From sequence record OZ035795.1: a stretch of 64,000 bases of DNA, one strand, 5' to 3'. The DNA is from Krischvirus LF73P4. The position numbers and the translations under genes are program-made. Shown piece after piece: positions 4,347-30,457 of this stretch (position 1 is its first letter; every line of letters begins with the position of its first letter). The notes beneath the pieces were generated by a model. The model made no database searches. It had not been told where the DNA came from and saw only the letters and a list, made by a program, of their open reading frames with translations.

Positions 4347-4375
4347 TTGACGCGGGGAGAAATCCCCGTTATACT
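4347..4375 (+). promoter_or_regulatory. sigma70-type early promoter TTGACG-N17-TATACT with GGGGA/TCCCC hairpin in the spacer
   Basis: Hexamers with 17-nt spacing downstream of gene 47 stop. Confidence 0.4.
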
Positions 4376-4400
4376 CTCTAAAAATTGATTGGAGGTTGTT

Positions 4401-4652
4401 ATGATTACTAATGCACTGAAAGAAATCAACGAAGGTTTATCGAAATTCACTAAGATCCATGTATTTGAGGTTGTGCGAGATGGTCAGTATATGCTATCAT
4501 TTCGGTCTAACTATGGTTTGTGGACTCATGACGAAATCCCATTTGATCGTGAAAATATCACCAAAGAGGGGCTAACAAACATCGTATCTCGTAAGGTTGC
4601 TGATATTACCCAGAATGTTATTGCTCGTGGGTCTATGGGGTCTGTACGATGA
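4401..4652 (+). CDS. hypothetical protein
   Basis: Track ORF 4389..4652; ATG at 4401 after GGAGG. Confidence 0.45.
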   Translation: MITNALKEINEGLSKFTKIHVFEVVRDGQYMLSFRSNYGLWTHDEIPFDRENITKEGLTNIVSRKVADITQNVIARGSMGSVR

Positions 4653-4966
4653 AAACACTTGCACAAAAAGTAATGGAATTTAATGCCGCGTTGCCTATGT
4701 TTGCTCGACGCAAGGGGATCTCCGTTGATGTATGGTATTCCAAAGAGCATGAAGAAGTTCGGATGATGGTCGAAAAGCGACTCACCGATACTACTGTTAA
4801 GTGTAAGATTCGCTCTATTCCTCGCGCGGAAATAGAATTTGATGAAAGCTATTACTTTACGCTACGTCATACACTGAAACAAGCAGTGGATGAACTTTTA
4901 GAAGACCTGAAACAATATGAAATTGAACGAGGAACATATTATGAATACGACTATGGTCGCGGCTGA
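4649..4966 (+). CDS. hypothetical protein
   Basis: 105-aa ORF, ATGA overlap with upstream stop. Confidence 0.45.
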   Translation: MKTLAQKVMEFNAALPMFARRKGISVDVWYSKEHEEVRMMVEKRLTDTTVKCKIRSIPRAEIEFDESYYFTLRHTLKQAVDELLEDLKQYEIERGTYYEYDYGRG

Positions 4967-5513
4967 TCCTGATTCGATAGCAATGGAATATTTTATTGAA
5001 TTGGTGCACGCGTACACACTAAAACAATCATATTACAAGAATCCGATCTATGGTTATCTGAAAGCGCGTATTGCTAAAATGTGGGGTCAGCCAGTGGTTA
5101 AGCTGTGGTATGATGACGGCTACCGTCGTTACCTTAAAGTGATTCACCCACAAGAATTGATGGTGACTATGGGCATTGGCGACTTTGTAAAAGACAAAGT
5201 AGAATCCATTATTAAGAGTGTGGTTGGTGAATATAATCCGATTGTATATGGTGCTTTCGTCCAGTGGAAACAATCCAGCAAATATTATTTTCCGAATACT
5301 CCATTGACGCTAACAGGTTGGATCTCTGTCATGCATAGTGGGGTATTCCTGGAAGCGTCAGAGACGATGTATAAAGGGTATATTCTCCCACATCGACTGG
5401 TGAAGTGTGATTATCGCTTGACTGTAGGTGAATTTCGCGATATTCTGGAACAACAAGCGGAAGACCTGCAAGGTGAAATTGAAGAATTTTTAGAGGAACA
5501 TAAACTAAAATGA
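4941..5513 (+). CDS. hypothetical protein
   Basis: Track ORF 4917..5513; ATG at 4941 after GAGGAA preferred. Confidence 0.45.
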   Translation: MNTTMVAADPDSIAMEYFIELVHAYTLKQSYYKNPIYGYLKARIAKMWGQPVVKLWYDDGYRRYLKVIHPQELMVTMGIGDFVKDKVESIIKSVVGEYNPIVYGAFVQWKQSSKYYFPNTPLTLTGWISVMHSGVFLEASETMYKGYILPHRLVKCDYRLTVGEFRDILEQQAEDLQGEIEEFLEEHKLK

Positions 5514-5773
5514 TTCTATCGATGACCTACCTTAGACACAGGGTTATAGAAGGTCTTCGCGAATATCTGGCATTGAATAAAGGGATTTATGTTGATCCCT
5601 TTATGACATATGATCCGGCGACACTGGATTATGTGATCATGTTGCCAGATCGCAGAGACACACTAGTTAAAGTGAAGGCGGCAAGTGTTTACAACATTGA
5701 TGAAGATGTGTTAGCATTTAATATTATGGAATGTGTGATTGCGGAGTGGATTAATGGCAAAGTTAAATTTTAA
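5510..5773 (+). CDS. hypothetical protein
   Basis: 87-aa ORF, ATGA overlap with upstream ORF. Confidence 0.4.
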   Translation: MILSMTYLRHRVIEGLREYLALNKGIYVDPFMTYDPATLDYVIMLPDRRDTLVKVKAASVYNIDEDVLAFNIMECVIAEWINGKVKF

Positions 5774-7436
5774 AACCTTGCGCTATCAAAATATAATGAG
5801 CGTGGGTGCTGAACCTGTTGAGATTCAGCTAGACGGATTCAAAAAGACACTAATCACTGGTGTTAACGGTGCTGGTAAATCAACAATGATCGAGGCGCTT
5901 TGCTTTGTGTTGTTCGGTAAACCGTTTCGTAGTATCAAGAAAGGCCAATTGATTAACAGCGTCAACAAAAAGAAACTGTTAGTCGAAGTCTGGTTTGAAC
6001 TGGACGGGAAAGAGTTTTATATAAAACGTGGTCAAAAACCGGAAGTATTCGAAGTGCATCGCGACGGTCAAAAGATCGACGAGAGCGCAAGCACCAAAGA
6101 CTTTCAGGAATATTTTGAAGGTATCATAGGCATGAACCTAGCCAGCTTCAAACAGATCGTTGTTTTAGGCACTGCTGGTTATGTTCCGTTTATGAGTCTT
6201 CCGGCAGCGGGTCGCCGTAAACTGGTCGAGGATTTGCTTGATATTGCTACGCTAGGCGAAATGGATAAACTGAATAAAGCGTATGTGCGCGAGATTACCC
6301 AGAATATCCAAATGCAGGAAATGAAAGCTAATCACGTTCAGCAACAAATCAACACTCATAAAAAGTACATAGAAGACGCTAGCAAGGCGAGTGCCGAGAA
6401 TCTCCAGCGTTTACAGAATATGTATGATAAAGAGGTAGAATCGGCTAAAGCATTTAAAGCCGAAGAAACGCGCTTGACCGATGAGCTATTGGCTGTTGTT
6501 ATGCCGGAAGATCCTAGCGCGGTATTGGCTAAAATTAATACTGCTATCGCACAGATTGGTGCGCAGATCCAGAACTTTGACCGTGTTATCCATATGCACG
6601 AGAAAGGCGGGATCTGTCCTACGTGCACACAACCGATCATTCAGGGTAATGATCAGACTGTACGCGAACAAAAAGCACAAGCGGAACATAAACTGTTTCT
6701 GATTGACGAGAAACGCGTAGAATACGCCGAGAAAGCAAATTCTTTCCAGGCAGCACAAACTAAGGTCTTGGAAATTAAACGCGCTATAGAGTCACAGAGA
6801 GCGAATTTAACGGCATCTGTAGGTCGTGCTAAACAGATCCAGAAAGCAATGCAGGAATTGCAAAAAGAAAGGGTTGACAATTCCGAAGAACTTGCTAAAC
6901 TGGAACACGAACTGGTAGAGATTACTAATGAAAAATCAAAGCTAGTTCTTGAAAAATATCACCGTGGATTTGTAACAGAAATGTTGAAGGATTCCGGTGT
7001 TAAGGCGTCTATCGTCAAGAAATATATTCCATATTTCAATGATCGGATTGCGTATTATCTTGATATTATGGAAGCGGATTATATCTTTACGCTAGATGAA
7101 GAGTTTAACGAAACAATCAAATCACGGGGGCGTGAATCGTTTTCGTATACATCGTTCAGTCAAGGCGAAAAGGCACGTATTGACCTTGCGATGCTCTTTA
7201 CATGGCGTGATGTTGCTGGTAAAGTATCTGGTACTAATATTTCTTTGTTGGTACTCGACGAAATTTATGATGGGGCTACGGACGTTCAGGGCGTAAAAGC
7301 ACTTGATTCCATCATTGACAAGTTAGATGATAACGTGTATATTATCAGCCATCGTGACCATAACCCTGATGATTTTAGCCGTCATCTCAAGATGGTTAAA
7401 CGTGGGCGATTCACTGAAATGAATGTTAACATTTGA
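5754..7436 (+). CDS. 46: recombination endonuclease subunit gp46 (Rad50/SbcC-like ATPase)
   Basis: 560 aa from ATG 5754; Walker A GVNGAGKST, long coiled-coil middle, CPTC zinc hook, C-terminal ...FSQGEKARIDLAMLF...LVLDE match recalled T4 gp46. Confidence 0.9.
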   Translation: MAKLNFKTLRYQNIMSVGAEPVEIQLDGFKKTLITGVNGAGKSTMIEALCFVLFGKPFRSIKKGQLINSVNKKKLLVEVWFELDGKEFYIKRGQKPEVFEVHRDGQKIDESASTKDFQEYFEGIIGMNLASFKQIVVLGTAGYVPFMSLPAAGRRKLVEDLLDIATLGEMDKLNKAYVREITQNIQMQEMKANHVQQQINTHKKYIEDASKASAENLQRLQNMYDKEVESAKAFKAEETRLTDELLAVVMPEDPSAVLAKINTAIAQIGAQIQNFDRVIHMHEKGGICPTCTQPIIQGNDQTVREQKAQAEHKLFLIDEKRVEYAEKANSFQAAQTKVLEIKRAIESQRANLTASVGRAKQIQKAMQELQKERVDNSEELAKLEHELVEITNEKSKLVLEKYHRGFVTEMLKDSGVKASIVKKYIPYFNDRIAYYLDIMEADYIFTLDEEFNETIKSRGRESFSYTSFSQGEKARIDLAMLFTWRDVAGKVSGTNISLLVLDEIYDGATDVQGVKALDSIIDKLDDNVYIISHRDHNPDDFSRHLKMVKRGRFTEMNVNI

Positions 7437-7653
7437 CAGAGTAACGCAGCCGGAGTTAGAATTGTATACCTTAATCAATCTATATTCCGGTGAAGAATAT
7501 GTAGTTAGTATGGGGGACATGAAAAACAGCATATACAGCGATGCAGACATAACAAAAATGTTGTCTTGTCGTCATCATGAGTTTATGCTGGTCCCCAAAT
7601 TTGATAAACTTGATTACCCTGATGCTGGGGTTGCAACAAACTTTAGAACGTGA
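7423..7653 (+). CDS. hypothetical protein
   Basis: 76-aa ORF overlapping the gene 46 stop. Confidence 0.4.
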   Translation: MLTFDRVTQPELELYTLINLYSGEEYVVSMGDMKNSIYSDADITKMLSCRHHEFMLVPKFDKLDYPDAGVATNFRT

Positions 7654-7683
7654 TATACTGATTTTATTTTGGAGATTAATATT

Positions 7684-8061
7684 ATGACTACTTCCGCAAA
7701 CCTGGCTAAAATTACTGTAGCAGACATTCAGAACAAGAAAACCAGCCTCGAATTTGACCGAGCAATGAACAAGATCCGTAAAGCGTGGGTACTGCAAATG
7801 CCGGAAAGCGAGAAAGCTAAAATGAAGGTTATCCCGCAGCAAGCACGCTTTGAACTGTACGCGCATATTGATGATATGGTGCAAAAAGAATGGATCGCTG
7901 CAATGCGCAAGTATTACGATGATTCAATTGCTAAAGGCGCTAAAACTATTCGAGGTAAAGATATTCTCGAAAAGGGTTATCAGATTGACACTGATGAACT
8001 GCTGATTGAAGCCGCTAGCGTAGTAGTAACTCGTCTGATCGCAATTGCTGATGGGAAGTGA
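7684..8061 (+). CDS. hypothetical protein (occupies the T4 rpbA position between 46 and 45)
   Basis: Track ORF 7669..8061; ATG 7684 after GGAGATTAA; positional inference only. Confidence 0.4.
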   Translation: MTTSANLAKITVADIQNKKTSLEFDRAMNKIRKAWVLQMPESEKAKMKVIPQQARFELYAHIDDMVQKEWIAAMRKYYDDSIAKGAKTIRGKDILEKGYQIDTDELLIEAASVVVTRLIAIADGK

Positions 8062-8065
8062 TAGA

Positions 8066-8443
8066 ATGAAACGTATGAGCTTAAAAGAACAAATGCTATT
8101 CATCCTACAAAATAGTAAATTATGTCATATTCCGTTTGACTATATCAAAGATAATGATGTAATGAACTACCGTCACGGGATAGAGTGTATTGAGTGGTAT
8201 TTTGTCCTAGATAAATTTGTTGATGATGTGATTCGTCGTAAACTTGCGTTTGATGTTCGTGGTGATCTGGTATATCTCGACGGAAAAAAGACCGCAAAGA
8301 ATCCTGTTACTGTCTATGCTCTGCAACAATACTTGACAGCTTACATTGGATTGAAGTATACTCACTCATCCGATAAGGAAGCCGAGAAAAAATTTATCGA
8401 AAGAATGCTAAAGATTCAAAATGAGCACGAAGTAAACCCGTAA
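8066..8443 (+). CDS. hypothetical protein
   Basis: Track ORF 8045..8443; alternative ATGs at 8051 and 8066. Confidence 0.4.
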   Translation: MKRMSLKEQMLFILQNSKLCHIPFDYIKDNDVMNYRHGIECIEWYFVLDKFVDDVIRRKLAFDVRGDLVYLDGKKTAKNPVTVYALQQYLTAYIGLKYTHSSDKEAEKKFIERMLKIQNEHEVNP

Positions 8444-8473
8444 TTAATTGATTAACATGATAAAGGTGATTTG

Positions 8474-9160
8474 ATGAAACTGACTAAAGAAACCATTGCT
8501 ACCCTGAAAAACTTTTCCGCTATTAACCCAGGTATCATCCTGAAAAAAGGAAACGTCCTAATCACCAAAAACATGACAAACGTTGTATATGGTGAAGCGA
8601 CTCTGAATCAAGAACTGGAACACGAAATCGGGATCTATGATCTTAACTCTTTCCTGGGCATTCTGAATCTGGTGGGCGATGAAGCAGATATTACGGTTGA
8701 TAACCGCACCGGAAACATTCGTGTGTCTAATGATCGTCTGAAAATTAATTATCCTGGTGCTAGTGCTGCTGCTATCGTATCACCGAAAGGCCGAGTTACT
8801 CCACCTGCAAGCGATGTAGATTACGAACTGAGCAACGACGATCTGAAACAGCTTATGAAAATGAGCAATCAGCTTAAAGTGGATCGCCTTGAATTTCTAC
8901 CGATTGATGGTCGTCTGATGATCAAAGGCTGGGAAGAGATTGACAAAAATAATCCTAATGAGATGTTTTGTCTTGATATGGGCGAATATACCGGAACCGC
9001 AGACTTCCATTTCTTTATTCGTAAAGATAACATGAAACTGGTTGCTACTGACTTCGGCGATTACAAACTGAGCTTCACTCGCCGTAAGGCTGTATGGCTG
9101 GCAAGTGAAACCGTATCTTATATGATCGCGTGTGACCTTGACTCCAGCTACACCGACTAA
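8474..9160 (+). CDS. 45: sliding clamp gp45
   Basis: 228 aa; MKL.K.T.A.LKNF..IN.GI.LK ... IYDLN.FLGIL.LV.D.A.I matches recalled T4 gp45. Confidence 0.9.
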   Translation: MKLTKETIATLKNFSAINPGIILKKGNVLITKNMTNVVYGEATLNQELEHEIGIYDLNSFLGILNLVGDEADITVDNRTGNIRVSNDRLKINYPGASAAAIVSPKGRVTPPASDVDYELSNDDLKQLMKMSNQLKVDRLEFLPIDGRLMIKGWEEIDKNNPNEMFCLDMGEYTGTADFHFFIRKDNMKLVATDFGDYKLSFTRRKAVWLASETVSYMIACDLDSSYTD

Positions 9161-9192
9161 TATAATGTTTGTGGGGAGTGTAAATACTCCCC
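9138..9192 (+). promoter_or_regulatory. early promoter TTGACT-N17-TATAAT followed by stem-loop GGGGAGT-gtaaat-ACTCCCC
   Basis: Perfect -10 with 17-nt spacer inside 3' end of gene 45; 7-bp hairpin immediately downstream. Confidence 0.5.
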
Positions 9193-9225
9193 GTTTTAAT
9201 GATGTAATTTGTGAGAGGTGATTAT

Positions 9226-10200
9226 ATGCTGAGTGTTAATGAAAATGAGTTTCAGTGGGAACAGAAATACCGTCCGAAATCAATTTCTGAATGTATTCTG
9301 CCGGAAGCAGATAAAAAGATCTTCGCGCAGATTGTTAAGCAAGGCCGAATCCCTTCTATGATCCTGCATAGCCCATCGCCGGGTACTGGTAAAACAACCG
9401 TTGCTAAGGCGCTTTGCGAAGATGTGGGTGTTGATTATCTGTTTGTTAACGGCGCAGATTGTAAGATTGATTTTATCCGCGATGAGATTACACGCTTTGC
9501 GCAGAGTGTATCACTCGATGAAGAAAAACGAGAAAAAGGCAAAGTTGTTATTATCGATGAGTATGACCGAGCGGGGTTGGCTGACGCTCAAAGACACTTG
9601 CGTAGTTTCTCTGAGGCATACTCAAACAACGTGACATTCATTATCACAGCAAACGATCTAGAAGGTATTATCCCAGCGTTACGATCTCGATTTGATCCCA
9701 TCACGTTTGGATCTCCGACTAAAGATGATCAGCTTCGCATGATGAAAGAAATGATCGTCCGGTGTAAAGCAATTCTTGATAAAGAAGGTGTGCCAGTAGA
9801 AGAAATGCGCGTATTAGCGGAACTGGTTAAACAGAACTTCCCAGACTTCCGACGCGTAATGAAACTTTTGGACCGCTACGCTAAACATGGTAAAATTGAT
9901 GCTGGCGTATTGAGCATGGTTATCGAAAGTAGCAATACCGAAGTAACCGATGTGGTGGAAGCACTTAAAACTAAACAGTTTGCTAATGTGCGTAAACTTG
10001 CACCGCGATATACCAATACATACGCTCAATTTGTCAAGAAACTTTATAATGAGTTGTATACTCAAGTTAAGCCAGCTTCTATTATTCGTCTGACCGAGAT
10101 TATCGGTGAAAATAATCAGATGTTTGCGCACGCGGCTGATAAAGAGATTCACATTGTCTTTTTGTTAATGCAATTAATGGTTGAATTGGAGTTCGTATAA
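9226..10200 (+). CDS. 44: clamp-loader large subunit gp44 (AAA+ ATPase)
   Basis: ATG 9226; EQKYRP....ECILP, Walker A HSPSPGTGKTTVAKALC, DE Walker B (IIDEYDR), sensor ...ITAN match recalled T4 gp44. Confidence 0.9.
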   Translation: MLSVNENEFQWEQKYRPKSISECILPEADKKIFAQIVKQGRIPSMILHSPSPGTGKTTVAKALCEDVGVDYLFVNGADCKIDFIRDEITRFAQSVSLDEEKREKGKVVIIDEYDRAGLADAQRHLRSFSEAYSNNVTFIITANDLEGIIPALRSRFDPITFGSPTKDDQLRMMKEMIVRCKAILDKEGVPVEEMRVLAELVKQNFPDFRRVMKLLDRYAKHGKIDAGVLSMVIESSNTEVTDVVEALKTKQFANVRKLAPRYTNTYAQFVKKLYNELYTQVKPASIIRLTEIIGENNQMFAHAADKEIHIVFLLMQLMVELEFV

Positions 10201-10778
10201 TGTTAGGTCAATTTTTCGGTGAAGATGATACACAATTAAACGAGCATGAAATTGCATGGCGCTCTCGTGATTGGGAAAAGGTGTCTGAATTAGCTGACAC
10301 ATTCACCGAGAAAACCGACAATGCATTATTTGCTCTGATGGATCATATCACCTTAGATAAACAGCGCGTTAATGTTGGGAACAATTCTGCATATAACCAG
10401 AGATGGATTAATACCGCTCTTTCCCAGCACGCAGATTGCCTATATAGCGCGTATGTGATGAATTTAATCGGTCATGGCCTCCCAGATCAAATGCATTTTG
10501 ATTATCTCTTACAGAGTATTTCTAAGGGGAAACGATACGGTAAATGGGCTAAACTAACAGAAGAATTGGACCAAAAATTGGTTTTAATGGCAGTGGCGAA
10601 AGCATATTGTGTAAATATGGATGACGCCCGGTTTTATCTCGATTTGGCTAATGAAAAGGGATATATGGACAAGTTATTGAAGCACATTAAACCGTATGCG
10701 ACCGATGAACTTTTGGCGGGTGTTACTAAGAATCAGACAGAAAGGAAACGACTTAAAAAGATTATAGAAAGGTGGTAA
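10200..10778 (+). CDS. 62: clamp-loader small subunit gp62
   Basis: 192 aa, TAATG overlap with gene 44, size and position as in T4. Confidence 0.75.
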   Translation: MLGQFFGEDDTQLNEHEIAWRSRDWEKVSELADTFTEKTDNALFALMDHITLDKQRVNVGNNSAYNQRWINTALSQHADCLYSAYVMNLIGHGLPDQMHFDYLLQSISKGKRYGKWAKLTEELDQKLVLMAVAKAYCVNMDDARFYLDLANEKGYMDKLLKHIKPYATDELLAGVTKNQTERKRLKKIIERW

Positions 10779-10779
10779 A

Positions 10780-11142
10780 ATGATTGAAATTAATTTGATT
10801 AGTCCTGAAAACTTCCTTAAAATTAAGGAGACTTTAACCCGCTGCGGCATTGCCAACAATCGAGACAAGACGCTGTATCAGTCTTGTCATATTCTCCAGA
10901 AGAAAGGGCGCTATTACATCGTTCATTTCAAGGAGTTGTTGAAATTAGATGGTCGTAGTGTTAAAATGACGTGGGAAGATGAATTACGCCGTAATAACAT
11001 TGCAAAACTTCTGGCGCAGTGGAATCTGTGTACCCTGATTGATAGTGATTTTGAAACTACCGAAGTTAATAATTTCCGTGTATTGTCTTTCAAACAGAAA
11101 GAAGAGTGGACGCTGATCGAGAAATATCAGATCGGACGATAA
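10780..11142 (+). CDS. regA: translational repressor RegA
   Basis: 120 aa; MIEI.L..PE.FLK.KETLTR.GIAN..DK.LYQSCHILQKKG.YYIVHFKE matches recalled T4 RegA. Confidence 0.85.
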   Translation: MIEINLISPENFLKIKETLTRCGIANNRDKTLYQSCHILQKKGRYYIVHFKELLKLDGRSVKMTWEDELRRNNIAKLLAQWNLCTLIDSDFETTEVNNFRVLSFKQKEEWTLIEKYQIGR

Positions 11143-11163
11143 GATACTGATGGGATAGGGGTA

Positions 11164-11192
11164 TTGACAAACTAAGTCGATTCCCCTATAAT
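11164..11192 (+). promoter_or_regulatory. early promoter TTGACA-N17-TATAAT upstream of gene 43
   Basis: Consensus hexamers, 17-nt spacer. Confidence 0.6.
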
Positions 11193-11224
11193 GAGTGTCT
11201 TTCGTAAGTGAAGGAGTTTATATT

Positions 11225-13903
11225 ATGTATTTTCTGTCATGTGAGCGAGTGGGTGATAAGATCTACGAGCGTTATATTGATGATGCTGGACAAGAACAAG
11301 AGCGTTACGTTGAATATACGCCAACTTTATTTCATCATGCCGCGCCCGGTATGGTTACGAATTATAAAGATATCTATGGCAAGCCTTGCATTGCTAAAAA
11401 ATTCCCATCTATGAACGAGGCCAACAAATGGCGTAAAAAGATGGGAGAAATGGGGCAGGAGGCACTAGGGATGGATGATTTTATCATCTCCTATCTGTCC
11501 GATACATATAAAGGCGAGATTCGATATGACCGAAATAAAATCCGTGTAGCCTGGGTTGATATTGAGGTCACTGCACCGGAATTTCCTAAACCAGAAGAAG
11601 CGAAATATCCTATCGATGCTATTACGCATTATGATTCCGTACATGATCGTTTCTTTGTATTTGATTTGAAAGGAAAAAACGGTGAAATCTGGGAAGCAAG
11701 CAAGTCTATTCTTCGACCTGATATTGTAGAGCGCGTTGTTTATAACGTCTATGACACAGAAGATGAATTGCTGTTAGAATACATCCGATTCTTTGAGGAA
11801 AACCGACCCGTTGGTTTCACTGGCTGGAACACAGAAACATTCGATATTCCATATATCATTAAACGTATCAGTAATAAGTTCGGAAGTAGAACCGCTAACC
11901 GTCTAAGCCCATGCGGTAAGATTAAATCCCGAATCTCGCAGGATGATTTTGGCAACGAGCGTGAAGCATTTACGATCATGGGGATCGAAAGCCTTGATTA
12001 TATTGACCTGTACAAGAAATTTAGCTTTACGACTCAACCAACATATGCATTAGATTATGTTGCTGAATATGAGACCGGAATCGGTAAGGTTGATTATGAT
12101 GGTCCGTTAAAGAAATTGCGTGATGACAACCATCAACTTTACATCGATTATAACATCGGCGACGTTGATCGTGTGCTGGCGATTGATAAAAAGCGTGGAT
12201 TTATCGATCTTGTGTATAGTCTATGTTTCTATGCAAAGATTAAATTTAACCATGTTTATAACCCGATGAAAGTATGGGATGCTATTATCTTCGGATCTCT
12301 GAAAGCAGAGGGTAAAGTAGTACCGGAAAATAAGATACAGCCTAAGCAGACTTATCCTGGCGCATTCGTAAAAGAACCTGTACCGAATGCTTACCGTTGG
12401 ATGATGAGCTTTGACTTAACAAGTCTGTACCCATCTATTATTCGACAGGTTAATATTTCTCCTGAAACAATCGCTGGATCTTTTGATGCTGCACCGATGC
12501 ACGAGTATATCAATAAAACTGCACCACGTCCGAGTGATGAGTATTCTTGCTCGCCTAACGGATGGATGTATAGAAAAGATATTCACGGTATCGTACCGAT
12601 TGAGATTAAAAAGGTATTCGATCAGCGTAAGCAGTACAAAAACATGATGTTGGCATGTGATCGCAATGCTGAACTCTGTAAAGCGATTCTACACGATGAA
12701 AATCATGTTTATGGGGGAACCATTAGCTATAGCGTTGAAGTGCGTCACGACTTCGATGAAGCGTTTAAATCGATGCTTTCTGAATTGAGCAAAGATGCCT
12801 TAGAGAAATTGCTGGAAGAATGTAAAGACGAGTCGATCTTGTGCAATACAAACCAGCTTTCTCGAAAAGTTTTGATCAACTCCCTTTATGGTGCGTTGGG
12901 GAATCCTAAATTCCGTTTTTATGATCTCCGTAACGCTAGTGCGATCACACTGTTCGGTCAGCTTGCAATTCAGTGGATTGAGCGTAAGATTAACGAATAC
13001 TTAAACGAGCTTTGCGGAACGACTGATTTTGCATATGTTCGTTATTGTGATACTGACTCCGTTTATGTGCTGGTTAACAATGTTATTGATAAGGTTGGCG
13101 GGGAAGACCGTTTCGACGATACCGAAAAACTTGTTGACTTCCTTGATAATTTCGGTAAACATCGAATGGAACCTATTATCGACAAGGGATATCGCGAGTT
13201 ATGCGAGTACATGAACAACTATGAGCACTTGATGTTTATGGACCGTGAGGCAATTGCTGGTCCTCCGTTGAAATCTGCGGGTATCGGTGGATTCTGGACT
13301 GGTAAAAAGCGTTATGCTCTTAATGTTTGGGATATGGAAGGAACGCGCTTTGCTGAACCTAAGCTAAAAATCATGGGCTTGGAAACGCAACGTAGCTCCA
13401 CCCCTAAAGCATGTCAGAAATCACTGAAAGAATGTATTCGCCGTATGTTGCAGGAAGGTGAAGAGTCATTGCAGGAATACTACGGTATTTTTGAGCAAGA
13501 ATTTAGAAAACTTGACTATCTTGATGTTGCTGCGGTATCATCTGCAAACAACCTACAGAAATACAGCGATTCAAACGGGTATCCGATTAAGGGTTGTCCG
13601 TATGCGGTTAAGAGTGTATTGTGTTATAATCGTAATGCTCGAAAATTCGGACTAGACCCGATTCGTGAGGGTGAGAAGGTTATGATTGTACCGCTTAAAG
13701 ACCGAAATCCGTTTGGAGAAATCTGTTTTGGTTGGTTGTCTGGTACTCGTATTCCACCAGAAATTGAATCAGAGGTGTTGAAGTGGTTGGACTGGCCTTT
13801 GTTGTTTAATAAGACTTTCGTCAAACCACTGGAGAACATTACCACGGCTGCAAAGCTGCAATATGAAAAAGTTGCTTCACTGACTGACCTGTTTGACATT
13901 TAA
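11225..13903 (+). CDS. 43: DNA polymerase gp43 (family B)
   Basis: ATG 11225 after AAGGAG; ...ERYIDD.G.E; exo motifs; SFDLTSLYPSIIRQVNISPET; NSLYGALGN; YCDTDSVYV match recalled T4 gp43. Confidence 0.95.
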   Translation: MYFLSCERVGDKIYERYIDDAGQEQERYVEYTPTLFHHAAPGMVTNYKDIYGKPCIAKKFPSMNEANKWRKKMGEMGQEALGMDDFIISYLSDTYKGEIRYDRNKIRVAWVDIEVTAPEFPKPEEAKYPIDAITHYDSVHDRFFVFDLKGKNGEIWEASKSILRPDIVERVVYNVYDTEDELLLEYIRFFEENRPVGFTGWNTETFDIPYIIKRISNKFGSRTANRLSPCGKIKSRISQDDFGNEREAFTIMGIESLDYIDLYKKFSFTTQPTYALDYVAEYETGIGKVDYDGPLKKLRDDNHQLYIDYNIGDVDRVLAIDKKRGFIDLVYSLCFYAKIKFNHVYNPMKVWDAIIFGSLKAEGKVVPENKIQPKQTYPGAFVKEPVPNAYRWMMSFDLTSLYPSIIRQVNISPETIAGSFDAAPMHEYINKTAPRPSDEYSCSPNGWMYRKDIHGIVPIEIKKVFDQRKQYKNMMLACDRNAELCKAILHDENHVYGGTISYSVEVRHDFDEAFKSMLSELSKDALEKLLEECKDESILCNTNQLSRKVLINSLYGALGNPKFRFYDLRNASAITLFGQLAIQWIERKINEYLNELCGTTDFAYVRYCDTDSVYVLVNNVIDKVGGEDRFDDTEKLVDFLDNFGKHRMEPIIDKGYRELCEYMNNYEHLMFMDREAIAGPPLKSAGIGGFWTGKKRYALNVWDMEGTRFAEPKLKIMGLETQRSSTPKACQKSLKECIRRMLQEGEESLQEYYGIFEQEFRKLDYLDVAAVSSANNLQKYSDSNGYPIKGCPYAVKSVLCYNRNARKFGLDPIREGEKVMIVPLKDRNPFGEICFGWLSGTRIPPEIESEVLKWLDWPLLFNKTFVKPLENITTAAKLQYEKVASLTDLFDI

Positions 13904-13947
13904 GATAAAGTGTGTATAATGGCGGGTGTTGGGTGACGATACCCGCC
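13893..13947 (+). promoter_or_regulatory. early promoter TTGACA-N16-(TG)TATAAT followed by stem-loop GGCGGGT...ACCCGCC
   Basis: Hexamers overlapping gene 43 stop; 7-bp stem just after -10. Confidence 0.5.
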
Positions 13948-13964
13948 AATGTGAGAAATATATT

Positions 13965-14153
13965 ATGAGAGACATTGAAAAGATTAAACGTGAACGTGAG
14001 GAAGGCATAGAGCATTTCAAGAAAGTTCACGGAAATCACAGCAACGAAGTATTTGTGACGATCAATGTTGATGCGATGAAAAAGTTAATTCAAGAGCACT
14101 ACAAAGATCGAATAACAATGAAGCAATTAAAGTATTACGGATTAACTGAATAG
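13965..14153 (+). CDS. hypothetical protein
   Basis: Track ORF 13926..14153; ATG 13965 downstream of promoter/stem-loop. Confidence 0.4.
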   Translation: MRDIEKIKREREEGIEHFKKVHGNHSNEVFVTINVDAMKKLIQEHYKDRITMKQLKYYGLTE

Positions 14154-14164
14154 AGGTATTAATA

Positions 14165-15235: not shown

Positions 15236-15247
15236 CAATGGTAGTAA

Positions 15248-15272
15248 AGGGGCTACGTGCCCCTTTTTCATA
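15248..15272 (+). terminator. intrinsic terminator after uvsX
   Basis: AAAGGGGCTACGTGCCCCTTTTTC: GC stem plus T-run. Confidence 0.5.
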
Positions 15273-20213: not shown

Positions 20214-20272
20214 TTGACACTAATCTATAATGGTTTTATTATGCCTCCCGTCGAAAGATTGGAGGCTTTTTT
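20214..20272 (+). promoter_or_regulatory. promoter TTGACA-N17-TATTAT overlapping terminator-like hairpin GCCTCC-N12-GGAGGC plus T6
   Basis: Hairpin 3' arm GGAGG doubles as Shine-Dalgarno for ORF 20276. Confidence 0.45.
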
Positions 20273-20779: not shown

Positions 20780-20840
20780 GTGTTGACAGCACAAACCAGA
20801 TAGACAATAATACACACATACCAACTAAGGAGAATCAATT

Positions 20841-24393: not shown

Positions 24394-24394
24394 T

Positions 24395-24568: not shown

Positions 24569-24666
24569 GTCATATACTTGACAATCACTCAATTTTAATA
24601 TGATTGTTGCAGCCGTCTTTGTGGCGGTTGCAGTAAGTTATGGTTATGTTATGAAGAGGTTTAATA

Positions 24667-26490
24667 ATGAGTGAGTTTCGCATTTTATCTGATCGTGAGC
24701 ATGTCCTTAAGCGTGCAGGAATGTATATAGGATCAACAACTTACGAAGAACATCAACGTTTCCTGTTCGGTAAATGGACAAAAATTTCATATGTTCCTGG
24801 ACTGGTGAAAATCATTGATGAGATCATCGACAACTCTGTAGACGAGGCGATTCGCACTAATTTTGAATTTGCCAATGTGATTAGCGTCGATATCCAAAAC
24901 AATATTGTTACGGTAACAGACAACGGTCGCGGTATTCCTCAACATATGGTTACTACCCCAGAGGGCACGCAGATTCCGCAACCTGTAGCCGCATGGACAC
25001 GAACAAAAGCAGGGTCTAACTTTGATGATACCAATCGATTAACGCAAGGGATGAACGGTGTAGGGTCGTCGTTGTCAAATTTCTTTAGCGATTGGTTTAC
25101 TGGTGTGACCTGTGACGGCGAAACAGAAATGACCGTTCAATGTACAAACGGTGCTGAAAATATCACATGGTCATCGAAACCATCAAAATTGAAGGGAACA
25201 AAGGTTACATTTTGCCCAGACTTCGACCACTTCGAAGGTTATATGATGGACAACTCTGTTTTAGATATTGTTCATGATCGTCTGCAATCATTGAGCGTAA
25301 TATTTCCTAAGATCACGTTTAAGTTTAATGGTAAACGTATTGTTAGTAAGTTCAAGGATTATGCTAAACTATACAATGATGATCCGTTTGTCATTGAAGA
25401 TAAAAACTTTTCACTTGCCCTAGTTCCTGCGGTCGAGGGAGAAGGTTTTAAATCAGTATCCTTTGCTAATGGTCTGTTTACCAAAAACGGGGGAACACAC
25501 GTAGACTACGTGACAGATGATCTTTGTGAAGAGATTGTAAAACGAATCAAGAAAGAATATAAGGTTGATGTTACTAAAGCTGCGGTTAAATCTGGATTGA
25601 CCTGTATTCTTATTGTTCGTGAATTGCCTAACCTTCGTTTTGATTCACAGACAAAAGAACGATTGACTAATCCAACTGGTGATATCAAGCGTCATATTGA
25701 TCTTGATTTTAAAAAGCTGGCTAAAGTCATTGCGAAGAAAGAAAACATTATCATGCCTATTATTGCTGTAGTCCTGGCACGCAAAGAGGCAGCAGATAAA
25801 GCGGCAGCGACTAAGGCAGCAAAGGCAGCGAAACGGGCTAAGGTAGCAAAACACGTTAAAGCTAACCTTATTGGAACTGACGCAGAAACTACCCTGTTTT
25901 TGACGGAAGGTGATTCCGCGATCAACTATCTGATCTCTGTACGTGATCAAGATTTACATGGCGGTTTCCCGTTGCGAGGCAAAACTCTTACAACGTGGGA
26001 ACAACCGGAGGCAAAGATCGTTAAGAACGCCGAAATTTTTAACATCATGGCGATCACTGGCTTGCAATTTGGTGTTGATGCATTGGAAGTTATGCAATAC
26101 AAAAATATTGCGATTATGACAGACGCTGATACTGACGGGATCGGGTCTATTAAACCTAGTCTGATCTCTTTCTTTGCTCGTTGGCCTGAATTGTTCGAAG
26201 ATGGACGAATCCGGTTTATCAAAACACCTATTATCATTGCGGAACCAAAGAAAGGTGATGATGTTCGATGGTATTATGACCTAGAAGATTTTGAGAACGA
26301 CCGAGATAATATCAAAGGTTACAACATTCGATATATCAAAGGTTTAGCATCGCTCACAGAATCAGACTATCATCGCGTGATCAACGATCCTGTCATGGAG
26401 ATCATCACGTTACCGGAAAACTATAAAGAGCTATTCGATTTGCTCTATAGTGAAGATTCAGACATGAGGAAGGCATGGATGGCGTCATAA
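24667..26490 (+). CDS. 39: DNA topoisomerase II large subunit gp39 (GyrB-like ATPase), apparently fused 39+60
   Basis: 607 aa; GHKL ATPase motifs (IIDEIIDNSVDEA, TVTDNGRGIP), TOPRIM-like C-terminal part; length exceeds recalled T4 gp39 alone. Confidence 0.85.
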   Translation: MSEFRILSDREHVLKRAGMYIGSTTYEEHQRFLFGKWTKISYVPGLVKIIDEIIDNSVDEAIRTNFEFANVISVDIQNNIVTVTDNGRGIPQHMVTTPEGTQIPQPVAAWTRTKAGSNFDDTNRLTQGMNGVGSSLSNFFSDWFTGVTCDGETEMTVQCTNGAENITWSSKPSKLKGTKVTFCPDFDHFEGYMMDNSVLDIVHDRLQSLSVIFPKITFKFNGKRIVSKFKDYAKLYNDDPFVIEDKNFSLALVPAVEGEGFKSVSFANGLFTKNGGTHVDYVTDDLCEEIVKRIKKEYKVDVTKAAVKSGLTCILIVRELPNLRFDSQTKERLTNPTGDIKRHIDLDFKKLAKVIAKKENIIMPIIAVVLARKEAADKAAATKAAKAAKRAKVAKHVKANLIGTDAETTLFLTEGDSAINYLISVRDQDLHGGFPLRGKTLTTWEQPEAKIVKNAEIFNIMAITGLQFGVDALEVMQYKNIAIMTDADTDGIGSIKPSLISFFARWPELFEDGRIRFIKTPIIIAEPKKGDDVRWYYDLEDFENDRDNIKGYNIRYIKGLASLTESDYHRVINDPVMEIITLPENYKELFDLLYSEDSDMRKAWMAS

Positions 26491-26491
26491 T

Positions 26492-27055
26492 ATGAAAAGT
26501 GCGAAATTTTGGAATACTGAAATTCAAGAGGAATTAAAACGAAGATTTGGACACACGGAAGGTGTTCTATATCACAAAACAAATAGTCCGTCTTTTAATG
26601 GTCTGCCAGAGGGATATTTCTACCAAGTCGGTGATAAAGTAAAAACAAAAAAGTTAAATTACGGTCATTTGGCAATAGATGTTTACAATAAGGTTAAAAA
26701 GAGAACATCTACATATCTTGTACATAGAATTGTCTGGTTTCTTGAATATGGAACACAGGTTAAGGTAATAGACCACATAGACGGGAATCCAGAAAACAAC
26801 AATCCACCAAATTTACGGGAGGCAACACAACAACAAAACATGTACAATAAAAAGAAAATGGACGGGTGCACGAGCATATATAATGGTGTTACTCATCGCA
26901 AAGGATCTAGCAAAAGACCGTGGCAAGCACAAATAAGGATAAACGGATACAGAAAATACATAGGATCGTTTGCTACTCAGGAGGAAGCCGCTAGAGCATA
27001 TGATGAATATGCAAAAATTCATCATGGGGAGTTTGCATCTTTAAATTTTAGTTGA
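26492..27055 (+). CDS. HNH-AP2 homing endonuclease
   Basis: 187 aa; HNH segment HRIVWFLEYG...IDHIDGNPENNNPPNLREATQQQN followed by AP2-like YNGVTHRKGS.RPWQAQIRINGYRKYIGSFATQEEAARAYDEYA; starts 1 nt after gp39 stop. Confidence 0.75.
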   Translation: MKSAKFWNTEIQEELKRRFGHTEGVLYHKTNSPSFNGLPEGYFYQVGDKVKTKKLNYGHLAIDVYNKVKKRTSTYLVHRIVWFLEYGTQVKVIDHIDGNPENNNPPNLREATQQQNMYNKKKMDGCTSIYNGVTHRKGSSKRPWQAQIRINGYRKYIGSFATQEEAARAYDEYAKIHHGEFASLNFS

Positions 27056-27091
27056 CACACAAGGGAGATTCTCTATAATGGGAGTCTCCCT
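27052..27091 (+). promoter_or_regulatory. early promoter TTGACA-N16-TATAAT with AGGGAGA/TCTCCCT stem around the -10
   Basis: Immediately after HNH gene stop. Confidence 0.5.
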
Positions 27092-27113
27092 TTTCTTTTA
27101 TGAGGATTTAACG

Positions 27114-27413
27114 ATGAGCAAAAAGAATAACATGATGATGAGTATGGCAAAGTTCATGGAAGCAGACCTGATCAAAAATACAGTACAGCATGAACGCCAG
27201 CGAGAAGCCGCAGTGATTGCAGAACAAGGTTTTCAGGTTATCCGCAATCCACCTAAAGATACGATTAAATCGAAATACAGAGACGATCTGAAAGACCATG
27301 AAGTACGGGAACTGGTTAATGATCTGCGTGACATTGCCATCAAATATCATGGTTATCAGTGCTTACGAGAACTGATCGCAGAGCGAGTAATGGATGCCCT
27401 GAAAAAAGATTAA
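27114..27413 (+). CDS. hypothetical protein
   Basis: Track ORF 27078..27413; ATG 27078 lies inside the -10 hexamer, ATG 27114 after GAGGA preferred. Confidence 0.45.
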   Translation: MSKKNNMMMSMAKFMEADLIKNTVQHERQREAAVIAEQGFQVIRNPPKDTIKSKYRDDLKDHEVRELVNDLRDIAIKYHGYQCLRELIAERVMDALKKD

Positions 27414-27420
27414 AAATCTG

Positions 27421-27455
27421 TTGACGCTGGATCGGGGATATATCATAATGTCCCC
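27421..27455 (+). promoter_or_regulatory. early promoter TTGACG-N17-CATAAT with GGGGA/TCCCC stem around the -10
   Basis: Hexamers and inverted repeat seen directly. Confidence 0.45.
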
Positions 27456-27479
27456 ATCGAAAACAAAAGGTTGACTTAT

Positions 27480-27674
27480 ATGAAACCGTTTAAGAATGAA
27501 GAAACTCAAAAATTTTGTGAAAAAATTGCAGAAATCTACTTGACAGGGGAAAAGGAAAAAGCTAATATTATGTTCAAAGAGTCGGTTTCTATGATGAAAG
27601 TAGCACGCTGGGAACTGATCGCAATGCAAGACCAAATTCGTTATCTAGTAACAAAGGAGAATCAAAATGCGTAA
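27480..27674 (+). CDS. hypothetical protein
   Basis: Track ORF 27471..27674 (TTG); ATG 27480 after AAAAGG. Confidence 0.4.
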   Translation: MKPFKNEETQKFCEKIAEIYLTGEKEKANIMFKESVSMMKVARWELIAMQDQIRYLVTKENQNA

Positions 27675-27861
27675 CCATTACATCGAACTGGCAAGCCGTA
27701 AAGTTTCAGACCTGAAAGGCGTAATTGCTTACTATGAAGAAGTCCTGAAAAACGAAATTGCGGAGTGGGAACGTAAAGAATACAGCAAGTGCTTAGAGAA
27801 AAGCCGCGCTGAACTGGTTGACGCAGAAGCCCATCTGCAATGGGTGATTGAAAATGTATAA
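27667..27861 (+). CDS. hypothetical protein
   Basis: 64-aa ORF overlapping upstream stop. Confidence 0.4.
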   Translation: MRNHYIELASRKVSDLKGVIAYYEEVLKNEIAEWERKEYSKCLEKSRAELVDAEAHLQWVIENV

Positions 27862-27871
27862 GGAGTAGAAA

Positions 27872-28129
27872 ATGAGTCGAAGTTTTGATTTTCTGATCGC
27901 CAAGTGTCATCGAGAAAAGAAATCGATGGACCTGTTTATGAAATGTTTGAGGTATGAATATGCACACCTTCGTAAACACAAAATTGATCCGCAAGTTTCC
28001 TACGAAAACATCAAGAAATATGCGAAAGAAGTGATTGACAACGATTGCACCGTGACATATAATGCGTTTATTGATTTATGGGCGTGGGATGTAATCTACG
28101 CAGAGATGGACAAAGAAGATTTTAATTAA
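27872..28129 (+). CDS. hypothetical protein
   Basis: 85-aa ORF. Confidence 0.4.
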   Translation: MSRSFDFLIAKCHREKKSMDLFMKCLRYEYAHLRKHKIDPQVSYENIKKYAKEVIDNDCTVTYNAFIDLWAWDVIYAEMDKEDFN

Positions 28130-28143
28130 GTGAGGATTATATT

Positions 28144-30252
28144 ATGAAAATGCATATCGATAATGAAGAAGTATTTGGCAGTGACCTGAGCGGTGCGGTT
28201 GATTTTTCACTGAAAGCAAGTAGCAAGGCTTTTATGGTGCTTTCTAAGAACACTTATCAATATTGTGAGCGTGCTTGCGTCCGTGAGTATTCGTGCAATG
28301 CTACCGACACTCACAAAGAAGCCGGAACCTTAGATCGTCCGTTTGATATTCATTTACCGACTGCAATCGAACCGTATTTTTCTGTGCGTGATTATGGTAC
28401 GGGTATTCCGTCTAAGAAAGAATTAGAACAACTGTTTACGGTTTACTTTGAATCAACAAAAGACCAGACTAATGATTATATCGGATCTTTTGGTTTAGGT
28501 GCGAAGTCTGCTTATAGCTATACTGACACCTTTACAATCGTAAACTACTACAATGGTCGCGCTTATGGCTTTACTGCATTTGTGCAAAACTCTATGCCGA
28601 AAATGGTGCAGATTTTCGACGAACCGACCTATGAAGACAACGGTCTGAAAATCACTATTCCGGTGAAAGAAAAAGACATTCAGACATGGCATCGAGAAGC
28701 ACAATTTGTACTTCGTCATTTTGGGGAACACAAACCTAATATCAATGCAATCGAAATTAATTATTTCCCTAGCTTTGATAATTATTATGTTTGCAATGGG
28801 CGTGATAACGATTCCTATGTAGTATATGCAATCATGGGTAAGATCCAGTATCCGATCCCGTATGAATATGTTCGCGGAACATGGTTAGAAGCTGTAAACC
28901 GCCAGCACCAGACCATTTACATTAATTTTGATTTGGGTGATCTGGACCTGATGCCATCGCGCGAAGAAGTTCACTTGTCAATCGAGACTAAAGCGAACAT
29001 CGAAAAACGTATTGCAGAAATCAATGAAATGATGTTGGAAAAGGTTAAAGAAAAGATCGCCAACATTAAAACAGAGCGTAAACTTGCGCAATTTATGAGC
29101 GAGTATTCATCGACTCAACGCAATATTATTAGCAAGATGGGTAAGATCGGGCAGTGGGATGATCCGGTAGCAATCTATAATAAGTTTGTGAATGCGGGTA
29201 AAGATTCGCCTAGTGACGTAGAAGGTCAGGTGTATACTCTGTATCGTACTCGTCACACAATCAGTAAATTGCGCCCTGCTTTCGTTAGCAGTCAATACAA
29301 CATTACGCATTTTGTATGGATGCATAAAGAAGATATTCTGTGTGTAATTGATGATACCGATAAACCGAAACTGCGTGCACTGACTCTTAACGGCATGGTC
29401 CAGGAATACGGAATCAATAAAAAGGTACTGGTGTTCCGTCAGCGCAACGAAAAACATATGGAGACTTTCGAGTACATCAAACAGTATTATGATGAATCTG
29501 AAATGACCGTGATTAAGGTATCAGAGGCCGATGATCTGCGTGCTAAAGCAGTTAAACCGGAAAAGACCGAGCGTACACAACGTGAAGCGACTCCCAAGCT
29601 GCCTAACGTGTATATCATGGAAAAGATTGGTGACAGTTGGCATAAAACCAGCCATCACATGAAAGCGGCAGAGATTCGCGAGTTATCAGGCTTGCACATG
29701 TTCCGCGTAGGTGATGCATTCGAAAGCCGTAGTCGTAAATCGATCTATAGTGAAAATACATTACACACGGCGCTTGACTACTTCGGGGTAACAAAGTATA
29801 TTATTACTCGAAACGAGACACAAAAATATCTCGTTGACGAACAATTGGAATGTGCGCTAGAATTTGTTCGCGGTAAGCTGGCTGGTCTGGCTAAGAAGGT
29901 TAAGACCAATCATCTGGGGTATGGCGAATATCTGGGTGTGATCACTATGTTGTTTCATGACGATGAACTAGAACGCTGTGTTCCAGAATTTATTGACAGA
30001 CTGTACGGTCGTCATTATAATAAAGAGGTTTCCAAGTTACTCCTTCGTACTCGTTGGATTATGGACGAAGAAACTAAAAAGATCTGTGATGAAAAATTCA
30101 CGGCAGCAAACGAACGAATTAAAGCAGTTTGTGCGAAGTTTAAAGAGAATAGCCCGTTACTGTATGATATTGTAGATAACTGGTATCGTATTCTGCATAA
30201 CGACAAACGCGCACAAGACTTTATGAAACTGGTTAAGAATGTTAAATTTTAA
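28144..30252 (+). CDS. rIIA: rIIA protein (histidine-kinase-like ATPase fold)
   Basis: 702 aa; NDYIGSFGLGAKSAYSYTDTFTIVNYY and the Bergerat-fold segment match recalled T4 rIIA; followed by rIIB. Confidence 0.85.
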   Translation: MKMHIDNEEVFGSDLSGAVDFSLKASSKAFMVLSKNTYQYCERACVREYSCNATDTHKEAGTLDRPFDIHLPTAIEPYFSVRDYGTGIPSKKELEQLFTVYFESTKDQTNDYIGSFGLGAKSAYSYTDTFTIVNYYNGRAYGFTAFVQNSMPKMVQIFDEPTYEDNGLKITIPVKEKDIQTWHREAQFVLRHFGEHKPNINAIEINYFPSFDNYYVCNGRDNDSYVVYAIMGKIQYPIPYEYVRGTWLEAVNRQHQTIYINFDLGDLDLMPSREEVHLSIETKANIEKRIAEINEMMLEKVKEKIANIKTERKLAQFMSEYSSTQRNIISKMGKIGQWDDPVAIYNKFVNAGKDSPSDVEGQVYTLYRTRHTISKLRPAFVSSQYNITHFVWMHKEDILCVIDDTDKPKLRALTLNGMVQEYGINKKVLVFRQRNEKHMETFEYIKQYYDESEMTVIKVSEADDLRAKAVKPEKTERTQREATPKLPNVYIMEKIGDSWHKTSHHMKAAEIRELSGLHMFRVGDAFESRSRKSIYSENTLHTALDYFGVTKYIITRNETQKYLVDEQLECALEFVRGKLAGLAKKVKTNHLGYGEYLGVITMLFHDDELERCVPEFIDRLYGRHYNKEVSKLLLRTRWIMDEETKKICDEKFTAANERIKAVCAKFKENSPLLYDIVDNWYRILHNDKRAQDFMKLVKNVKF

Positions 30253-30263
30253 GAGGTGATATT

Positions 30264-30395
30264 ATGACTAAACTGACCGCTATCCAGAAAGAAACCATCC
30301 GTAAACAATACGCTCGCGGCTTGACTAAAGGCGAACTGGCACGAATCTATAATGTATCAGACCGCACAATCCGCAAGGTTGTAGAAGCAAAATAA
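30264..30395 (+). CDS. 43-aa helix-turn-helix mini-protein, paralogous to the rIIB N-terminus
   Basis: Not in track; MTKLTAIQKETIRKQYARGLTKGELARIYNVSDRTIRKVVEAK; G.T..ELA....VS.RT..RV pattern shared with rIIB residues about 30-55. Confidence 0.45.
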   Translation: MTKLTAIQKETIRKQYARGLTKGELARIYNVSDRTIRKVVEAK

Positions 30396-30457
30396 TTCTG
30401 GTATAATGATGTGAATCGGGCGGCGATAGTCGCCCAACTAATAGAGGAATGAATACT

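Follow-up and report, generated by a model that had tools for sequence, protein, structure and literature searches.

Gene map and promoter–hairpin sites

The window analysed here is a stretch of 64,000 nucleotides (nt) from Krischvirus LF73P4 (sequence record OZ035795.1), and this report deals with the pairs of a sigma-70-type promoter and a short GC-rich stem-loop that lie between its early genes. According to megablast searches, the window belongs to the genus Krischvirus (RB49/phi1/JSE-like T4-type coliphages). JSE is 98.7% identical to positions 4000–12000, FL04 is 99.6% identical to positions 8400–14200, and many other Krischvirus genomes are 97–98% identical to positions 26000–40000. Gene coordinates were transferred onto the window from the JSE annotation. 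The early region, from position 1 to about 39150, is transcribed rightward. Its genes are arranged in the order 55, 47, 46, rpbA, 45, 44, 62, regA and 43, followed by uvsX, 41, 61, 56, modB, srd, dda, dexA and 39, and then by rIIA (28144–30252) and rIIB (30458–31450). The region ends in a hyperplastic stretch of small open reading frames (ORFs) at 31.4–39.1 kb. Intergenic DNA makes up just 4.6% of the early region (1782 nt in total).

An earlier note on this DNA had named six early promoters, each with a GC-rich inverted repeat next to it. All six were found at those places, and the one cited as 30402 begins at 30379. The promoters and their stem-loops are as follows.

4347–4375, + strand: promoter of site 4347, TTGACG (4347–4352), spacer 17, TATACT (4370–4375); between gene 47 and a hypothetical ORF, with the stop codon TAG of gene 47 abutting the -35
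4353–4368, + strand: stem-loop of site 4347, CGGGGA-gaaa-TCCCCG, in the promoter spacer
9138–9166, + strand: promoter of site 9138, TTGACT (9138–9143), spacer 17, TATAAT (9161–9166); overlaps gene 45 at its 3' end and precedes gene 44
9173–9192, + strand: stem-loop of site 9138, GGGGAGT-gtaaat-ACTCCCC followed by GTTTTAAT, 7 nt past the -10
13893–13920, + strand: promoter of site 13893, TTGACA (13893–13898), spacer 16, TATAAT (13915–13920); overlaps the stop codon of gene 43
13920–13948, + strand: stem-loop of site 13893, core TGGCGGGT..ACCCGCCA, abutting the -10; in full TGGCGGGTGTTG-ggtga-CGATACCCGCCA, 12 pairs, 2 of them G.U
27052–27079, + strand: promoter of site 27052, TTGACA (27052–27057), spacer 16, TATAAT (27074–27079)
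27061–27092, + strand: stem-loop of site 27052, AAGGGAGA..TCTCCCTT, 13 pairs, with the -10 in the loop, followed by TTCTTTTAT
27421–27449, + strand: promoter of site 27421, TTGACG (27421–27426), spacer 17, CATAAT (27444–27449)
27434–27455, + strand: stem-loop core of site 27421, GGGGA..TCCCC, with the -10 in the loop
27430–27458, + strand: full extent of the same stem-loop, GGGGAUAU..AUGUCCCC, no T-run after it
30379–30407, + strand: promoter of site 30379, upstream of rIIB, weak -35 TTGTAG (30379–30384), spacer 17, extended -10 TGgTATAAT (30399–30407)
30418–30435, + strand: stem-loop of site 30379, GGGCGGC-gata-GTCGCCC (core GGGCG..CGCCC), at about +5 of the leader and without a T-run behind it

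The promoters at 4347, 9138, 13893, 27052 and 27421 match the consensus at 10–12 of 12 positions, and the -35 of 30379 matches at only 3 of 6. A stem-loop is present at every one of the six sites, with the 5' arms GGGGA, GGGGAGT, GGCGGGT, GGGAGA, GGGGA and GGGCG, in site order. The hairpin lies in the spacer at 4347, downstream at 9138 and 30379, directly against the -10 at 13893, and around the -10 at 27052 and 27421. A Shine-Dalgarno sequence and an ATG follow at each site.

Correspondence to the published PeSLs

The promoter–hairpin pairs are the published promoter-early stem-loops (PeSLs) of the RB49-like phages. They are therefore already known and have been rediscovered here, and the general promoter-plus-hairpin grammar that the earlier note had proposed does exist in this phage group, as the PeSL architecture. 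PeSLs were described in RB49 and phi1, with about 51–52 copies per genome, by Arbiol, Comeau, Kutateladze, Adamia and Krisch (2010, Genome Biol Evol 2:140; PMC2839356). Each is composed of a sigma-70 consensus promoter and a G(n)-loop-C(n) stem-loop; an A/T-rich stretch with the upstream stop codon precedes, and a Shine-Dalgarno sequence and the start codon follow. The five subclasses differ in where the stem-loop sits: it may precede the -35, cover the -35, lie between the two boxes, cover the -10, or follow further downstream, just ahead of the transcription start. PeSLs lie mostly in hyperplastic regions, and a few are found in the replication and virion modules (PMC2839356). The sites in the window share the genus, the promoter consensus, and the type and positions of the stem-loop with the RB49/phi1 PeSLs, and no essential difference was found. 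The identity of the window to JSE, FL04, RB49 and others is 98–99.6%, and all of the sites are carried by the early-gene strand. Gene 43 has PeSLs on both sides in the published genomes (PMC2839356), and in the window it is bordered by sites 11164 and 13893.

Gene 43 itself, the DNA polymerase gene (11225–13903), is one uninterrupted ORF of 892 codons in the window. The annotations of JSE, G5211 and kvi split the gene into two coding sequences with an insert of 0.5–1.2 kb between them; in G5211 and kvi this insert holds an ORF with weak similarity to an intron endonuclease (I-LimII-like).

The A/T-rich stretch with a stop codon is found at 4347, 27052, 27421 and 20214, and not at 9138, 13893 and 30379. 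The upstream half of the array copies in the window, AAAAAnTTAGTTGAC, is likewise found at 4347, 20214, 27052 and 27421. The dispersed copies have no more in common than the promoter hexamers, part of the A-rich upstream motif and the Shine-Dalgarno motif, with a mean column identity of 40%. The sites 9138, 13893 and 30379 are PeSLs by architecture only and are not evident recombination-competent repeats.

The PeSL concept was extended to T4/PST and KVP40/nt-1 by Comeau, Arbiol and Krisch (2014, Genome Biol Evol 6:1611; PMC4122927). There, too, the unit is an indel-associated terminator/promoter cassette between early genes. The stem-loop in those phages is located just upstream of the promoter, whereas the hairpins in the window are mostly inside or after it. 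The stems also differ (AG(n)A-loop-TC(n)T and A3-4G3-loop-C3T3-4), and those promoters deviate from the sigma-70 consensus (PMC4122927). The lambdoid 'moron' cassettes and intrinsic terminators (Hendrix et al. 2000, discussed in PMC2839356) have the same arrangement of a GC-rich RNA hairpin, by which upstream transcription is ended or attenuated, beside the promoter of the next gene, each gene bringing its own promoter and terminator. In morons and tandem terminators, however, the elements stand in series, whereas hairpin and promoter interpenetrate in the window. Moron flanks are not conserved repeats serving recombination (PMC2839356), and the U-tract that defines an intrinsic terminator is present in only about half of the hairpins in the window. 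A search of the whole window against Rfam 15 gave no match at the gathering threshold.

Further PeSL-like sites

Other sites of the same kind were found in the early region, including a repeat array that is the canonical form of the PeSL.

11155–11192, + strand: PeSL upstream of gene 43, promoter TTGACA-17-TATAAT (11164–11192)
11155–11189, + strand: stem of site 11164, ATAGGGG..CCCCTAT, which encloses the -35 and extends into the -10
15246–15266, + strand: stem-loop after uvsX, AAAGGGGC-tacgt-GCCCCTTT with a T-run, terminator-like
20214–20266, + strand: PeSL upstream of modB, promoter TTGACA-17-TATTAT (20214–20242)
20243–20266, + strand: stem-loop of site 20214, GCCTCC..GGAGGC, followed by TTTTTTATT and the modB ATG
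24578–24633, + strand: site 24578 upstream of gene 39, TTGACA at 24578 with an ambiguous -10
24607–24633, + strand: stem-loop of site 24578, TTGCAGCCGTC-tttgt-GGCGGTTGCAG, strong
34764–36118, + strand: repeat array in which a 57-nt PeSL occurs four times, at 34764, 35469, 35781 and 36062

The stem-loop after uvsX lies 13 nt downstream of a promoter-like site (15204–15233). Upstream of modB, the Shine-Dalgarno sequence GGAGG is within the 3' arm of the stem-loop, and the transcription start is predicted at about 20249, just past the outer 5' arm. The ribosome-binding site of modB would thus be masked in read-through transcripts only. In 3 of the 4 array copies the hairpin GGGAGTA-gtaaca-TACTCCC lies over the -10; the remaining copy, at 35469, is degenerate in its 5' arm (61% identity).

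The conserved 3' half of PeSL units is a leader and ribosome-binding motif, (A)AGGAGAATCA(A/n)nATG, that many unrelated early genes have in common. Examples are located at 20826–20840, 27653–27666, 34809–34823 and 35826–35838, and in the JSE gaps at 330, 2441, 6347 and 12916. Promoter-like matches of at least 10 of 12 consensus positions number 48 on the + strand versus 10 on the - strand in the whole window, with examples at 7315, 8333 and 16329. Many of these matches are intragenic. Perfect 12/12 sites occur at 28035–28063, 81 nt upstream of rIIA and with no hairpin, and at 29993–30021, inside rIIA.

Three hairpins elsewhere in the window were also observed. In the virion-gene part (56419–56488), a terminator-type hairpin, AAAAGCCAA..TTGGCTTTTT (56419–56447), is followed by a perfect TTGACA-16-TATAAT (56460–56487), which is the PeSL class with the stem-loop upstream of the -35. 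Within the nrdH coding sequence (71–106), a 7-bp stem GGTCGGG..CCCGACC (71–96) encloses the -35 of a promoter-like site, TTGACA-16-TATGAT (79–106), upstream of the ORF 214–372; this is a PeSL-like, gene-embedded arrangement. The third is a strong symmetric hairpin, GAAGGGGAGGCC-gaaa-GGCTTCCCCTT (39164–39188), at the junction of the rightward early and the leftward late genes, and it is probably a bidirectional terminator.

Hairpins relative to promoters and intergenic DNA

Promoter windows of 79 nt were folded and compared with 200 dinucleotide-preserving shuffles. The z values at 4347, 9138, 13893, 27052, 27421 and 30379 were -1.61, -2.46, -4.55, -4.47, -2.43 and -2.07, respectively. Four more dispersed promoters gave -3.33 (11164), -2.44 (15204), -3.15 (20214) and -3.45 (24578), and in the same test the promoters 20783 and 17683 showed no folding excess. 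Local folding by energy alone (Lfold, span 45) had yielded more than 500 'stable' structures across the window; it did not discriminate and was replaced. To count as compact, a hairpin needed a perfect stem of 5 bp or more, 4 or more G:C pairs in it, and a loop of 3–16 nt. The zone searched at each promoter extended from 15 nt before the -35 start to 35 nt after the -10 end, and intergenic promoters were counted if they matched the consensus at 10 or more of the 12 positions. A compact hairpin was present at 9 of the 15 intergenic promoters, against 5.85% of all 79-nt windows (binomial p=3e-8). The intragenic promoter-like matches had one in 2 of 24 cases, i.e. at the chance rate. The intergenic DNA (1782 nt) contains 7.9 compact hairpins per kb and the coding DNA 0.64 per kb, a 12-fold difference (p=6e-10). 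The predominance of G-rich 5' arms (10 of 14) was not used, as three of them are repeat copies and the coding hairpins lean the same way.

The earlier note had held that its idea would fail if hairpins were no more frequent next to promoters than elsewhere in intergenic DNA. In that comparison the densities were 10.5 versus 4.1 per kb, and the difference is not significant (p=0.11). The pairing therefore belongs to the intergenic gaps, and an association specific to promoters is not demonstrable in the window. What is defensible is that a GC hairpin is present in almost every early intergenic gap of at least 40 nt, with an interleaved sigma-70 promoter in most of them.

It has to be considered that there is no specific coupling, that both hairpins and promoters are general in sizeable early gaps, and that their overlap is a by-product of compaction (gaps of 54–82 nt). 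In addition to the densities above and the small intergenic share of the early region, this explanation is favoured by gaps that have a hairpin without a good promoter (2141–2170, upstream of gene 55; 17024–17039; 31799–31817; the gap at 9049 in JSE) and by promoters without a hairpin (20783, 17683 and 28035). All 8 promoter-bearing gaps in the 16 kb of JSE that precede the window carry a hairpin. Against mere overlap, the promoter-plus-hairpin unit is itself repeated as the 57-nt repeat, whose register is fixed, the hairpin ending exactly one nucleotide before the predicted start in three array copies. Hairpins located in spacers or around the -10 must co-evolve with promoter function. The cassette at 27052 is also intact with or without the gene upstream of it. 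In the window an HNH/AP2-type homing endonuclease ORF of 187 codons (26492–27055) lies between gene 39 and the 27052 PeSL, whereas in Sf20 (43255–43355), which does not have this ORF, the cassette directly follows the gene 39 stop codon. Taken together, we regard the by-product explanation as somewhat unlikely.

Strand preference and conservation of the stems

Each intergenic locus with a perfect stem was folded with symmetric 6-nt flanks. The sense strand was the more stable in 12 of the 14 intergenic hairpins (mean -14.7 versus -12.7 kcal/mol, p=0.02). The 24 hairpins in coding regions were split 13 to 10 between sense and antisense (p=0.53). The values were -12.3 (sense) versus -10.5 kcal/mol (antisense) for the stem-loop 4353–4368, and -22.2 versus -13.8 kcal/mol for 13920–13948. 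The sense-strand advantage arises because of G.U pairs. This strand specificity favours a function in RNA over a palindrome in duplex DNA.

Among 6–8 Krischvirus genomes, the variable columns were 3/258 in stems, 4/58 in loops, 2/114 in promoter hexamers and 18/517 in the rest of the gaps. The stem-loop 4353–4368 is invariant. Two of the three stem changes turn a G.U into a Watson–Crick pair (9180 G to A, in kvi; 3251 T to C). The conservation of the stems is at most suggestive of selection on pairing. The covariation evidence comes from these 6–8 near-identical genomes and is weak, and an anchored-pattern scan of IMG/VR for hairpin variants gave only 2 contigs. More distant relatives align in coding DNA only, at about 67% identity.

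Plasticity of the gaps

The ORF 27480–27674 is missing from JSE (window 27414–27674 versus JSE 44770–44843). The JSE junction runs from just past the hairpin of the 27421 PeSL to the conserved leader motif of the next gene, AGGAGAATCAAAATG, where the Shine-Dalgarno motif AGGAGAATCA is shared, and the ORF is a cassette-type indel like those in the PeSL papers. Other genomes carry inserted homing-endonuclease genes in the gaps that follow uvsX and gene 56 and in the one that precedes gene 39. As most of the indels are homing-endonuclease events, they are not by themselves proof of PeSL-mediated recombination.

A second published role of the PeSLs is at the DNA level: the canonical copies have sequence in common and serve as recombination points for the gain and loss of ORFs (PMC2839356). 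Arbiol et al. also speculate on a recombination protein that binds GGGG...CCCC, and they show mini-circles bounded by PeSLs (PMC2839356). Together with indels at 5 of the 14 hairpin-bearing gaps among six genomes, this could suggest that the inverted repeats themselves act on DNA. The neighbouring indels, however, are mostly homing-endonuclease genes, which have their own mobility. Stem sequences, stem lengths (5–13 bp) and loops (4–21 nt) vary from site to site, so that there is no common operator. The G.U pairs improve the structure on the sense strand only, which a palindrome of duplex DNA would not need, and the stem changes observed convert G.U to Watson–Crick pairs. Action of the inverted repeats on DNA is accordingly very improbable. 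The reading of the hairpins as operators of a repressor had been rejected in view of the same diversity of stems and loops.

Transcription starts, termination and RNA stability

Transcription starts were predicted as the end of the -10 plus 7. The hairpin is fully upstream of the predicted start at 4347 (start at about 4382), at 11164 and in all four array copies. The predicted start is inside the hairpin at 13893 (about 13927, within the 5' arm), 20214, 24578, 27052 and 27421. At these sites, the hairpin would be foldable in read-through RNA only and not in the RNA from the site's own promoter.

The criterion for an intrinsic terminator was a U-tract of at least 4–5 U within 8 nt directly after a GC-rich hairpin. 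The numbers of T in the first 8 nt past the stem are 6 (27061), 5 (9173), 4 (4353), 2 (13920), 2 (30418) and 0 (27434). With a T-run at only 2–3 of the six cited hairpins, most of them are therefore not canonical intrinsic terminators. In the annotation of G5211, ARNOLD terminators are given at the homologues of 3243, 9173, 15248 and 27063. The published evidence for termination is that the PeSL211/210 stem-loop lowered lacZ expression about as much as rrnB T1 did (PMC2839356). As for the promoters, one wild-type clone of the PeSL206/205 promoter gave about 13,000 Miller units. Nearly all other PeSL clones, PeSL193/192 included, had point mutations in the -35 or -10, because the PeSL promoters are so strong (PMC2839356). 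For hairpins that lack a T-run, the terminator label is by analogy with the one tested PeSL, and a role as a 3'-end stabiliser would be equally possible.

The earlier note had suggested that the hairpins couple termination of upstream transcripts to re-initiation, or else mark RNase cleavage sites. The first suggestion is in agreement with the published interpretation and its reporter data, and it fits the strand preference, the conservation and the phase of hairpin and start; it is weakened by the scarcity of T-runs and by the unproven enrichment at promoters. The second suggestion found no support. Three of the six hairpins (4353, 9173 and 27061) contain GGAG, in the paired stem and hence not as the accessible GGAG that RegB would need, and the stems of 5–13 bp are too short for RNase III.

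A broader alternative is that the hairpins are elements of RNA stability or processing rather than terminators, namely exonuclease barriers at the 3' end of the upstream mRNA, 5' protection of the downstream mRNA against RNase E, or contexts for a nuclease such as RegB. It would account for the half of the hairpins that have no T-run, for the three hairpins (9173, 15246 and 30418) at +1 to +7 of a new transcript and for the GGAG motifs just mentioned, and the sense-strand specificity suits any role in RNA. GGAG is not found in 13920, 27434 and 30418, however, and elsewhere it is paired. The transcript started by the embedded promoter lacks some or all of the hairpin at 7 of the 10 dispersed sites, so that the hairpin could not stabilise that 5' end, and the one stem-loop tested in the literature acted as a strong terminator (PMC2839356). 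We consider this alternative unlikely.

Proposed mechanism

According to the results described above, the PeSL cassettes probably insulate the early genes and drive them anew at the RNA level. We infer this mechanism from the arrangement of the sites, and its test in the literature is that of one stem-loop. In each short early intergenic gap, the next gene would have a strong host sigma-70 promoter of its own, with a G-rich/C-rich stem-loop fitted inside it, around it or directly behind it. Transcripts arriving from upstream would contain both arms, so that the hairpin could fold and lead to termination, attenuation or a stable 3' end. RNA polymerase from the embedded promoter would start inside or after the hairpin at most sites. 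Its transcript would not contain the 5' arm and would therefore be unaffected by the hairpin. As a result, every gene or small operon would be insulated and driven anew.

Several points weigh against this reading of the pairs as RNA-level insulators. The association of hairpins with promoters inside intergenic DNA is not significant, and hairpins occur in gaps without a good promoter, including the promoter-less JSE gap at 9049, whose hairpin is of the terminator type. With genomes that are 95–99% identical, stem and non-stem substitutions differ only weakly (Fisher p=0.08). The start positions on which the phase depends are themselves predicted, and at 9138, 15204 and 30379 the full hairpin lies at +1 to +7 of the transcript that the promoter itself starts (at about +1 for 9173–9192). 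These three hairpins may be 5' stabilisers or attenuators of their own transcripts. Roughly half of the hairpins lack a T-rich tail; of the six cited, 13920, 27434 and 30418 have none, and 4353 is a borderline case. Simple terminator scans flag few hairpins, and among the six cited only 27061. Finally, 9138, 13893 and 30379 have their -35 in the preceding coding sequence and lack the AT-rich half and any extended similarity to the repeat.

For the PeSLs of the replication module, we tentatively put forward a more specific form of the RNA-level mechanism, as a possible reading rather than a probable one. These PeSLs might be phase-locked RNA insulators, in which the promoter is threaded through the hairpin and the start lies within the stem or immediately past it. 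RNA reading through from upstream would be stopped or capped, and for modB its Shine-Dalgarno sequence would also be sequestered, whereas the promoter-initiated RNA would escape. The selected function would be in RNA, in view of the sense-strand G.U pairs, and not in the DNA recombination that the literature stresses. The hairpins at 9138, 15204 and 30379 would have been re-used as leader hairpins.

Significance

The biology of the promoter–hairpin pairs is not new. The present analysis adds the greater stability of the sense strand, stems that are less variable than loops, and a predicted start inside or after the hairpin at most sites. The PeSL architecture, first described by comparative genomics and reporter assays, was recovered in the earlier note from the raw sequence alone. 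In the RB49-like phages, PeSLs are the accepted explanation of how many small early genes are insulated and driven, and of how ORFs are shuffled between genomes.

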